Sequence record: NC_042128.1
Length of the DNA stretch: 64,000 bases
Strand: one strand, 5' to 3'
Origin: Escherichia phage RCS47
The notes under the pieces are model-generated. The model did not search any database and had not been told where the DNA came from. It was given only the letters and a program-made list of their open reading frames with translations. A program made the translations under genes and the position numbers. Below are positions 24,591 to 26,137 of the stretch, piece after piece (position 1 is the stretch's first letter; every line of letters starts with the position of its first letter).

Positions 24591-25055
24591 CAGGGTTTTC
24601 GTCATGGTTAGCGACTTTGCGGCGGTTTAGAAACTGACCATTAAAGTAAATGCAAACGATGATCTGATGATGGTAGCGGCCTAAGAAGCCAGATGCCACG
24701 GGGTATGAGTCGTCCCCCGTCAAAAAATCGACCGCAGAGTGTCCCCGTCTGTGTATTAGGGAACGGGGAGGCACAACAGGTAAGGGCGCTGGTGTGATTA
24801 ACCAGATGAACGAGAAGGGGCCATCTGTTGGTCAGCGTCCTTTCCTGTTGCGTTTTCTTTTCAGCGTAACAGCGGTGCTTAACAGCACTTTGGGTACAGT
24901 TCCACGAATTTACGGGTATATCCCGTCATGCTGAAAGCGCTAATCACGCTGGAAGCCAGGGTTGTGCATCCCCTGTTACCGAATTGCAGCCAGGGCGCGG
25001 TGCGCCGAAAAGCATACGGAGGTGGAAGCCCTCGCCGGAGACGTACCCGGCAAGT

Positions 25056-25131
25056 GATGGTGTAGCTCAGCGGTTAGAGCGGTTGACTGTTAATCAACGG
25101 GTCGATGGTTCAAATCCATCCACCATCGCCA
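25056..25131 (+). tRNA. tRNA-Asn (GTT)
   Basis: cloverleaf folded by hand: acceptor GATGGTG/CACCATC, anticodon loop CTGTTAA, T-loop TTCAAAT, CCA encoded. Confidence 0.85.
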
Positions 25132-25133
25132 AT

Positions 25134-25209
25134 GCCGGTTTAGCTCAGTTGGTAGAGCGCCTGCCTTGTAAGCAGGATGTCAGCGGTTCGAGTCCGTTAA
25201 TCGGCACCA
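25134..25209 (+). tRNA. tRNA-Thr (TGT)
   Basis: acceptor GCCGGTT/AATCGGC, anticodon stem CCTGC/GCAGG, loop CTTGTAA, T-loop TTCGAGT, CCA encoded. Confidence 0.85.
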
Positions 25210-26137
25210 GCACAACAGGTAAGGGTATTTTGCGACGTCGGAGATCGCCGAGCTTGGCAGAGGGTTCGAATCCCTACGAAGTACCCTTACCGTTGTGATG
25301 AATGCGCAGGCTGATGCGCGAAAGACATTGCAGCTATTGCGGAAAAGAGCTGTTCGGCGGGGCAATTAAACGCCCGTGAGAGTCTGAAATAACCGCAAGC
25401 CGGAGATCAGCACCGGTCATCACAACACAACAGGTAAGGGCATTCTCCCTTATGGGGCTTGGCTTAAATGCATCGAGTGCTCTTACCGTTGTGATGAAGT
25501 GCAGCTCTTTGAAGCAACCAGAAGATAAGCATCTGGCTTCACAACATAAACCGCAGGAACGACCAATAAACGGTAGTCCGTATGGAGAACACCCCGTTGA
25601 GGAAGAGGCCTGGCCGGAACCGTAACCGGCACTACAACGTTGAGAACACTGGCGTAACGGGGTCATATCCCAATCTACGAATAAATGTTGCGTTGCAGCG
25701 TGACAACCAGTGTTCTCAACATTGTGGTGAATGCACAGGCTGATGTGCCGCAACTACAGTAGTGCGCGCTTTGCGGGGCTTGCTACAACCCTGTGTCGGA
25801 GTTCAGCACCGACCATCACAGTTTGATTCTCTGGCATGAGCATAACGCTGAAATAAGTCCAGTCTGGTGCGGCCCGATCACCCGCCGTTAGCTCCACGAA
25901 ACGGAGCACGTAACAGGTAAGAGCATTCTCCTGTAACGGGTTCATATCCCAATCTACAGGTCCACCAAGAATGCTCTTTCCGTTGCGGTGAATGCGGCTA
26001 AGCGCACGCGGGGAAATGGTTATATCAGTACATTCATTTCTCCTTGTTTCCCCGTCCACGGTGGATAACCAGCCAAAGGACACCGGGAGGCACCCGGCAC
26101 CGCAGCTTTTTTATTCGTTAAATAATGGAGTGAGAGG

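Follow-up and report, generated by a model that had tools for sequence, protein, structure and literature searches.

An array of structured RNA elements in the ban operon leader

Escherichia phage RCS47 is a P1-like phage, and we analyzed 64,000 nucleotides (nt) of its sequence record (NC_042128.1), hereafter the window. Between positions 24771 and 25987 lie five related long hairpins, E1–E5, interspersed with two tRNA genes and with other structured elements. As described below, these hairpins belong to a large family in phages, and we give somewhat better than even credence to the view that they are RNase III processing hairpins punctuating a polycistronic precursor of tRNAs and small RNAs (sRNAs). 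The array region is 99–99.5% identical to the corresponding sequence of the P1-like phages vB_EcoM-813R1 and P1 itself (NC_005856; 82% of the length).

All five hairpins lie on the plus strand, where each folds as a long stem around a branched insert (folding free energy [dG] −34 to −56 kcal/mol, z score [z] −3.3 to −6.7). E1 spans 24771–24852 (dG −39.3, z −5.2), E2 25210–25297 (dG −50.2, z −5.1), E3 25425–25493 (dG −34.1, z −3.3), E4 25630–25729 (dG −55.6, z −6.7; inverted repeat I1), and E5 25909–25987 (dG −41.9, z −5.9). None of 200 shuffled sequences folded as well as any of them, and the minus-strand folds are weaker by 4–8 kcal/mol in all five. The hairpins rank among the longest inverted repeats of the window and are clustered in the array. 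An earlier note, made from the sequence alone, had already reported five related elements at these places, the last four about 210–275 bp apart; we find their CAAC or TAAC starts at 24774, 25213, 25428, 25635, and 25911, and the intervals between the last four measure 215, 207, and 276 nt. The stems, put at 14–18 bp in that note, extend to 18–26 bp in our folds. T-arm-like hairpins had been ascribed to the elements in general, but they are canonical in E2 (AGGGTTCGAATCCCT), degenerate in E4 and E5 (GGGKTCATATCCC), and missing from E1 and E3. The proposed common 3′ tail, GTGRTGAATGCRCAGGCTGATGYGC, follows E2 and E4 in full and E3 and E5 in part, but does not follow E1; its motif occurs four times in the array and once elsewhere in the window, against 0.75 occurrences expected.

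The arms follow the pattern (N)CAACAGG(U/A)AAGRGC... / ...GYYCUUWCCGUUG, which gives a stem of about 20 bp, and those of E2, E3, and E5 align without gaps to the copy in phage lambda and to 50 others. A bulged A is present in these three hairpins and replaced by G in E4; E1 keeps the family arms but pairs the base that is otherwise bulged. The third pair of the inner stem is U-A in E2 and E3 and a mismatch in E1 and E5, as it is in 43 of the 55 family members aligned below. In E4, the stem sequence has been swapped through compensatory changes (GUUGAGAACACUGG/CCAGUGUUCUCAAC) with pairing kept. A small hairpin that precedes many family members, GCUCC-ACGAAAC-GGAGC, is found on the plus strand at 25891–25907, ahead of E5.

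The array lies in the long untranslated leader of the ban operon, because C1-controlled promoters upstream point toward the array, trnI, and ban. The Pban promoters (P1ban/P2ban) and the C1 operator Op72 (Oban) occupy 24357–24402 on the plus strand, at the end of dmt, with 99% identity to the annotated P1 sequence (NC_005856; L001 1558–1603). Here and below, L-numbers denote fetched loci, mostly contigs from IMG/VR; L001 is P1 NC_005856, and L126 is K-12 Qin. By transfer from the P1 annotation, P1ban and P2ban face rightward, toward the array, trnI (27210), and ban. Pban is the predicted start of the array-containing transcript, and E1–E5 lie on its sense strand, 3′ of Pban/Op72 and 5′ of trnI and ban, in the non-coding leader, about 2.8 kb long, of this C1-repressed operon. 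Downstream of Pban is a 'dicF-like region' (24497–24590, plus strand), delimited from the P1 annotation and a terminator scan; its similarity is to the stretch preceding dicF in K-12 Qin, not to DicF itself. The scan places a strong intrinsic terminator at its end, with a stem at 24560–24582 followed by a T run.

E1 is followed on the plus strand by a structured spacer (24853–25055, defined from sequence and repeat D12), which closes with a small hairpin, GCCGG-AGACGUAC-CCGGC, just 5′ of tRNA-Asn (GTT; 25056–25131, plus strand; ARAGORN, Rfam 74.5 bits). Next comes tRNA-Thr (TGT; 25134–25209, plus strand; ARAGORN, Rfam 72.9 bits), whose encoded CCA directly abuts E2. These two and tRNA-Ile(CAT) are the only canonical tRNAs that ARAGORN and Rfam detect, consistent with the earlier statement that no element of the array folds as a canonical tRNA; for E1–E5, ARAGORN and Rfam RF00005 gave no sub-threshold tRNA match at E values up to 10.

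The array had also been judged to have no protein-coding capacity, and the minus-strand open reading frames (ORFs) present here, of 61, 139, and 109 aa, indeed have no Pfam match. P1 is annotated with two minus-strand genes across E2–E5, plp (125 aa) and upl (63 aa), at NC_005856 69472–70041 (L001 2379–2948), corresponding to window 25180–26083. That the region is minus-strand coding sequence, decayed or real, or else a set of decayed tRNA genes, strikes us as very improbable: plp runs over trnT in the antisense direction, the frames are divided up differently by the 173-nt indel of one unit that separates this phage from P1, and conservation tracks RNA pairing rather than codons, with the same sequences lying in the intergenic leaders of lambda and many other phages. 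Because the ORFs are not kept in this close relative of P1 and lack a Pfam match, the plp and upl annotations are probably spurious.

E hairpins form a widespread family in phages

We searched IMG/VR with a 16-nt pattern taken from the 3′ arm and tail and obtained matches in at least 120 contigs. After chance matches inside genes were discarded, 68 distinct elements with a common anatomy remained. The E hairpins are thus a family of about 70 distinct copies in lambdoid phages, P1-like phages, and some lytic phages of Enterobacterales, the last represented by Klebsiella phage T751 (Ackermannviridae) and Shigella phage Sf16 (Ounavirinae, within a tRNA cluster). An extended pattern, applied to species-representative bacterial genomes, recovered prophage-bearing Enterobacterales (Serratia, Klebsiella, Pantoea, Kluyvera, Escherichia) and a few likely chance matches. 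Along the RNA, family members have the same order of parts: a small hairpin or intrinsic terminator, NCACAACAGGTAAGAGCATTG, an insert of 20–95 nt, CAGTGCTCTTTCCGTTG, and TGGTGAAT with the hairpin GCGCAGGCTGATGCGC. Rfam 15 contains no family for the E hairpin in P1, in lambda, or in 25 other loci, and the arm and tail sequences are absent from the searchable literature, as are the tags of the module described below.

Compensatory changes preserve the stem. When the arms of 55 distinct copies, E2–E5 and lambda among them, were aligned without gaps, 88% of cells paired, compared with 31–54% in slid controls. Changes on both sides were found in 17 of the 26 pairs, and no shuffle among 500 attained any of these measures. 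The lower stem is kept in sequence, including the bulged A and the mostly non-canonical third pair (among its forms a U·U mismatch), and the upper stem, which covaries, in pairing alone. At columns 19–38, a U·G wobble in 37 of the 55 copies alternates with C-G and U-A, which assigns the selected structure to the plus (gene-sense) RNA strand.

This strandedness bears on the idea that the repeats act as DNA, either as linkers for cassette exchange or as hairpin recombination sites resembling attC. RCS47 has exactly one E/B unit (25303–25475, composed of E3 and frame B2, described below) more than P1 NC_005856; the joint falls within the 3′ arms of E2 and E3, which are identical, an indication that the unit was gained or lost by homologous recombination. 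Moreover, flanks, inserts, and frames occur in changing combinations from phage to phage, the L016 element joins two arm types and its lower stem is broken, and the arms hold AAC...GTT as attC sites do. Read on the opposite strand, however, the U·G wobble would be an A·C mismatch; together with the compensatory changes, it points to a single RNA strand as the one under selection. The orientation of the elements also follows transcription, and recombination between repeats, which is to be expected anyway, leaves the upkeep of the stem unexplained. Integron attC sites and clusters of attC sites lacking integrases (CALIN) share with the E array the series of imperfect hairpins, the variable apical structure, an extrahelical base, and AAC...GTT at the base. 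In contrast to these, the E array has no unpaired central spacer, no R and L boxes in an attC-type layout, and no integron integrase, and its strand asymmetry fits an RNA made from the transcribed strand. We consider a DNA-level role improbable.

By inspection, we also rejected identification of the hairpins as integron attC sites proper: the stems are continuous save for one bulge and one mismatch, there is no integrase nearby, and pairing is better on the transcribed strand. Retrons, Y RNAs, and ribozymes were set aside as well, with no reverse transcriptase nearby and no Rfam match at E values up to 10 for the hairpins. The sole match to Y RNA/YrlA (RF02553) scores 25.6 bits against a gathering threshold of 69 and covers the two real tRNAs and none of the hairpins.

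The genomic context of the family is consistent across loci. Flanking ORFs are mostly co-oriented with E, both upstream (46 versus 13) and downstream (41 versus 20). Upstream, there is typically a gene for a Q antiterminator from one of three unrelated families (PF03589, PF06530, PF06323) or for a repressor of the CI type; holin and lysozyme genes follow downstream. In many contigs, E begins about 10 nt past a tR′-like terminator of the short PR′ transcript; the lambda copy, at 44788–44862, lies directly past tR′. Only about one-quarter of the loci have tRNA genes near E. E2 begins 1 nt after the CCA of tRNA-Thr, a layout that recurs in L063; in Sf16, the hairpin ends 3 nt 5′ of tRNA-Arg; and in L094, L033, and L101, tRNAs lie 76–164 nt from E. 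These data do not support the earlier suggestion of degenerate tRNA genes. What is conserved, with compensatory changes in about 70 phage copies, is the long stem and not a tRNA-like interior, and some copies of the element, that of lambda among them, are remote from all tRNA genes. The family is not P1-specific, and it does not appear to derive from decayed tRNA genes.

The 3′ arm (window 25476–25491; lambda 44843–44862) holds UGCUCUUU, the core of the rrn/lambda boxA, and a conserved hairpin follows about 12 nt on. We set aside a nut-site reading of this motif and hairpin: the motif is locked in the stem, and the elements come after tR′ in a Q-dependent operon.

The 3′ tail opens a second conserved frame

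The sequence initially seen as a 3′ tail is the start of a second conserved module, which we term frame B. Because the tail starts frame B, the 210- to 275-nt repeat unit of P1 corresponds to E plus B. The frame consists of a 6- to 7-bp closing stem (GUGGUGA ... CCACCAC), a 5′ hairpin 2 nt later, a variable core, and a 3′ hairpin (GCCGG-AGAUCAGCA-CCGGC) that abuts the closing strand, for a total length of 64–153 nt. We identified 50 distinct versions, in which the closing stem and the hairpins covary. A type II form has the 5′ hairpin GCGGCUNAGCGCRCGC and the 3′ hairpin CCGGG-AGGCA-CCCGG.

Four frames follow E2–E5 on the plus strand. B2 (25295–25423) has the closing stem GUGAUGA/UCAUCAC, the 5′ hairpin GCGCAGGCUGAUGCGC, and the 3′ hairpin GCCGG-AGAUCAGCA-CCGGU, and is 96–98% identical to segments of lambdoid and Shiga toxin (Stx) phages. 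B3 (25491–25542), recognized from repeat families D1/D2 and its sequence, is short and degenerate. B4 (25724–25819; closing stem GUGGUG/CAUCAC) is near-identical to the frame that comes after tR′ and E in the lambda-like loci L090 and L092. B5 (25985–26112) is of type II, with the closing stem GCGGUG/CACCGC and the CCGGG-AGGCA-CCCGG hairpin, and is followed by a U run.

B5 matches the Rfam STnc100 model (RF02076) over model positions 31–147 with 38.3 bits (E = 2.8e-6), the gathering score being 47; it is related to STnc100, yet not a member by the curated threshold. The type I frames B2–B4 have no Rfam match. STnc100 and PasD have been described as Hfq-associated sRNAs located near Q and lysis genes of lambdoid prophages (bioRxiv 10.64898/2026.05.13.724894). 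B5 aligns with these RNAs through the closing stem and both hairpins, and the E/B elements likewise lie near Q and lysis genes, but the sRNAs as described do not include the long E hairpins. A further type II frame (GGUGAAUGCGGCUGAGCGCACGCGG ... CACCUGGAGGCACCAGGCACUGCAUCAC) is located between dicF and dicB in K-12 Qin (L126 2770–3085). A C/D-box or k-turn reading of the tail (GUGAUGA...CUGA) was rejected, CUGA being missing from the type II frames and from the STnc100 consensus.

Apical inserts are hypervariable, and a minority resemble tRNA arms

The inserts enclosed by the E stems vary widely, with 44 insert types among 70 elements. The P1 inserts extend 21–47 nt beyond the aligned arms and are of four types, E4 and E5 sharing one; three of the four are common to other phages. 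A canonical T-arm is found in 7 of the 44 insert types, where 0.05 would be expected and the maximum in 500 shuffles was 2. The tRNA-like flavor of the array is real, but it resides in a minority of inserts and not in the conserved part.

These observations raise the possibility that the hairpins carry small-RNA cargo, with the stem as a processing or stabilizing scaffold and the insert as the product, sometimes a tRNA mimic. Such mimics could act as decoys for tRNA-targeting nucleases, the earlier note having named anticodon nucleases, or as sponges of T-loop-binding enzymes. Several insert types have been kept across phages, in keeping with a cargo function: the E2 type, an anticodon-arm-like hairpin (5 bp, 7-nt loop) together with a T-arm, recurs with compensatory changes in L072, L016, and L093; the E3 insert, CCCUUAUGGGGCUUGGCUUAAAUGCA, is conserved from P1 to the lytic Shigella phage Sf16 and is also found in L062 and L092; and a sub-motif of the E4/E5 type recurs in L017, L026, and L049. 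However, most insert types have neither a tRNA-like feature nor a common motif, T-arms occur on either side of the insert, ARAGORN and the Rfam tRNA model recognize no insert, and no target defense system was identified. Nor do the hairpins amount to tRNAs. E2 shares a canonical T-arm and the anticodon-arm-like hairpin with tRNA, and E elements abut real tRNA genes, but E hairpins have no cloverleaf, D-arm, or 7-bp acceptor with NCCA, and most family members have no tRNA-like part. We think a cargo role unlikely, decoys and sponges included, while noting that it partly overlaps with RNase III processing and can coexist with it.

An anti-tmRNA/tmRNA-like module lies upstream of the array

Immediately 5′ of E1, on the plus strand, lies a module (24592–24769) that was recognized from a weak Rfam match to permuted transfer-messenger RNA (tmRNA) and from comparison of loci. 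Its parts are an antisense segment (24593–24640), a resume-like GCA (24652), a tag of 10 codons (ANDDLMMVAA) with a stop codon (24652–24684), a helix-5-like nested stem whose loop contains the stop codon, a hairpin in which compensatory changes are clear, and an H-type pseudoknot (24735–24769). Among the loci fetched for E, we found 25 distinct versions of the module, each on the same strand as an E hairpin and 100–700 nt 5′ of it; copies outside RCS47 include L148 1334–1499, L149 1320–1480, and those of L039, L021, L094, L006, and L016. In every version, the tag has ten codons plus a stop and the form AN(D/E)xxxxxxA, with synonymous changes between versions. Examples besides that of P1 are ANDEQFLAVA, ANEEMYLAVA, and ANDDVVLMAA in lambdoid contigs, ANDNTFLAVA in T751, and ANDNVFLAVA in Sf16. 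The resume codon stands in the context UAAAU GCA AAC GAU, which ARAGORN reports as a 'resume consensus' at a relaxed threshold.

The 5′ 40–50 nt of the module are antisense to E. coli tmRNA (nt ~54/68–106), over a target that runs from the 3′ strand of pseudoknot 1 through the A-rich linker and the resume codon to tag codons 1–5. In 9 of 10 versions, the duplex with host tmRNA has a predicted energy of −42 to −47 kcal/mol, versus −15 to −29 kcal/mol with the module's own tag region. The reverse-complement tmRNA alignment scores at least as high as the maximum of 300 shuffles in all 10 versions (above it in 9), and the sense alignment is at background. Within the segment, UAGUUUUCGUC is fully complementary to GAC GAA AAC UA in the codons of the host tag, a site at which the phage's own tag has diverged.

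With tmRNA (SsrA; one-piece and permuted two-piece), the module has in common the resume context, a tag of 10 codons that ends in AA or VA ahead of its stop, the placement of that stop codon in a helix-5-like loop, and a downstream pseudoknot, but it has no tRNA-like domain, and its 5′ part is antisense, not homologous, to host tmRNA. ARAGORN detected no tRNA-like domain in the module at its default or 90% threshold; its relaxed mode gave many false positives, and the placements at 80%, inconsistent between loci, were rejected. The module is absent from Rfam. A 2014 census listed phage ssrA only in mycobacteriophages and Bacillus phage G (PMC4131195). In a separate scan of IMG/VR for the resume motif, we fetched 124 loci (L151–L274), of which 57 are environmental viral contigs containing ARAGORN-detectable, mostly permuted tmRNAs with alphaproteobacterial-type tags (ANDNFA...ALAA). 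The enterobacterial module, without a tRNA-like domain, is a type distinct from these ordinary tmRNAs.

The apical hairpin inside E1 of P1 (24788–24805) has a GUGUGAUUAA(UAA) loop, and the same sequence forms the pseudoknot loop of the tag module in the lambdoid, T751, and Sf16 versions (e.g., L148 1481–1496). Its conservation in different structural settings suggests that GUGUGAUUAA is a binding or pairing site.

One could imagine that the hairpin/B array forms the downstream portion of a system by which the phage takes control of trans-translation in its host, although we find this doubtful. A duplex of 40–50 nt would form between the module and host tmRNA, spanning pseudoknot 1, the resume codon, and the first tag codons. 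Its formation would either lead to the destruction of host tmRNA, the duplex being an RNase III substrate, or provide a phage replacement tag in trans, with the E hairpins and the tRNA-like inserts or frames serving to process, stabilize, or complete the module RNA. Another reading, to which we assign a slightly lower probability still, holds that E, B, and the upstream module are one ribonucleoprotein RNA acting on host trans-translation, in which the hairpins have an architectural or tRNA-like part. The arrangement in L021 and L094, and similarly in Sf16, where a consensus promoter directly precedes the module, then E, then B, would suit such an RNA. Nearly every module in the sampled loci has an E hairpin 180–730 nt downstream, a figure drawn from a sample biased toward loci with E, and frame B has a cloverleaf-like layout: an acceptor-like stem of 6–7 bp is followed 2 nt later by one hairpin, and another abuts the 3′ strand. 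On the other hand, the majority of E/B units stand without an adjacent module, among them the lambda unit and four of the five P1 units. As a chargeable tRNA-like domain, frame B was rejected: in 47 of 50 copies, its closing stem pairs G3 with C70 instead of forming G3·U70, the identity pair for alanine, and no CCA is encoded. The ARAGORN results for the module likewise speak against a tRNA-like component.

Proposed RNase III processing of a polycistronic precursor

E. coli RNase III needs roughly two helical turns of duplex, and phage RNase III sites typically have internal bulges or mismatches. The E stems, at 18–26 bp, are of the corresponding length. Structure, covariation, strand, family membership, position at unit boundaries, and suitable stem length are properties observed in the hairpins; that RNase III in fact cleaves them, with the consequences set out here, we hold to be somewhat more probable than the contrary. 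Host RNase III would recognize the two-turn E duplex and cut it, separating the units along the precursor, in the order dicF-like RNA, anti-tmRNA/tmRNA-like module, tRNA-Asn and tRNA-Thr, and several STnc100/PasD-like B RNAs. Cuts at E1–E5 would release the module, a tRNA-Asn/Thr precursor, the individual B RNAs, and the terminal STnc100-like RNA. They would also provide entry points for exonucleolytic trimming of tRNA 3′ ends, with only a short 3′ trailer to remove, and set defined 5′ ends for the B RNAs. Among the interpretations offered by the earlier note, a processed small-RNA array fits this evidence. The array itself is confirmed; the widespread family, the second module at the tail, and the ban operon leader had not been noticed.

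Lambda provides the closest parallel. The title of a 1988 paper by Daniels, Subbarao, Blattner, and Lozeron (Virology 167:568; cited in PMC7547250) refers to in vivo RNase III sites in the late, Q-dependent transcript of lambda. The leader of that transcript contains no duplex of a size suited to RNase III apart from E; its other long stem, tR′ itself, has 15 bp. Together, the title and the absence of another suitable duplex link E to RNase III. We take the lambda sites to lie just beyond tR′ and presume that they are the 44788–44862 hairpin. That hairpin shares with P1 the arms (CACAACAGGTAAGAGCATTG ... CAGTGCTCTTTCCGTTG), the fold, and the operon-leader position; the two differ in that lambda contains a single copy with a reduced B frame, and P1 a set of four or five interspersed with tRNAs and sRNA-like frames. 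The RNase III punctuation of T7 early and late mRNAs and the processing stalks of rRNA likewise place long stems at unit boundaries. They have no sequence similarity to the E stems, which enclose variable inserts of 20–95 nt and separate non-coding units, and for which cleavage is inferred. On balance, we lean toward placing the E hairpins in a known kind, phage processing hairpins of the RNase III type with lambda as prototype, and the family is larger and more modular than catalogued.

Several points weigh against this interpretation. Cleavage of the E stems is a prediction, and the coincidence of the lambda sites with E is presumed from their placement beyond tR′ and from the absence of another suitable duplex. 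RNase III has low sequence specificity, whereas the lower stem, bulged A, and mismatch are strongly conserved; since RNase III alone fails to explain this conservation, a sequence-specific partner of the lower stem, protein or RNA, is possible. The strong terminator at 24560–24590 separates Pban from the array, so expression of the array would need read-through or an unmapped promoter. A pure processing role would leave the enrichment of T-arms in the inserts unexplained. Finally, knockdown of P1 trnT, plp, and upl by CRISPR interference caused no plaque defect (PMC10695390), and any role of the array is thus dispensable in the laboratory.

Even so, the roughly 1.7 kb from Pban to the first downstream gene of P1-like phages would be a dense operon of structured RNAs rather than the site of plp and upl, and one hairpin of the lambda late leader is a member of a large family, missing from Rfam 15, in which a conserved frame surrounds exchangeable inserts. 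If RNase III processing is correct, it would give a simple rule by which phages pack tRNAs and regulatory sRNAs (STnc100/PasD) into read-through transcripts and then release them. The T-arm enrichment and the neighboring anti-tmRNA module stand outside this explanation.

Neighboring features of the window

Downstream of the array and before trnI, at 26138–27182, a 78-aa membrane protein and a 275-aa SPFH/Band 7 lipoprotein are encoded in place of P1 tciA/tciB/tciC. Upstream, the bifunctional methyltransferase Dmt (21095–24382) has 1095 aa here versus 754 aa in P1. The size gap is due to an insert at about aa 77–420 with Pfam matches to Hint, intein-splicing, and LAGLIDADG domains, which we annotate as a putative intein with a homing endonuclease in the C5-methylase part. 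Elsewhere in the window, Rfam detects two copies of C4 antisense RNA and the sok antitoxin RNA (1606–1812, 6448–6621, 52252–52462). The a1/b1 targets adjoin one C4 copy, and isrK adjoins the other; given these two copies and their neighbors, RCS47 appears to have two immI-type regions or one extra C4-regulated module.

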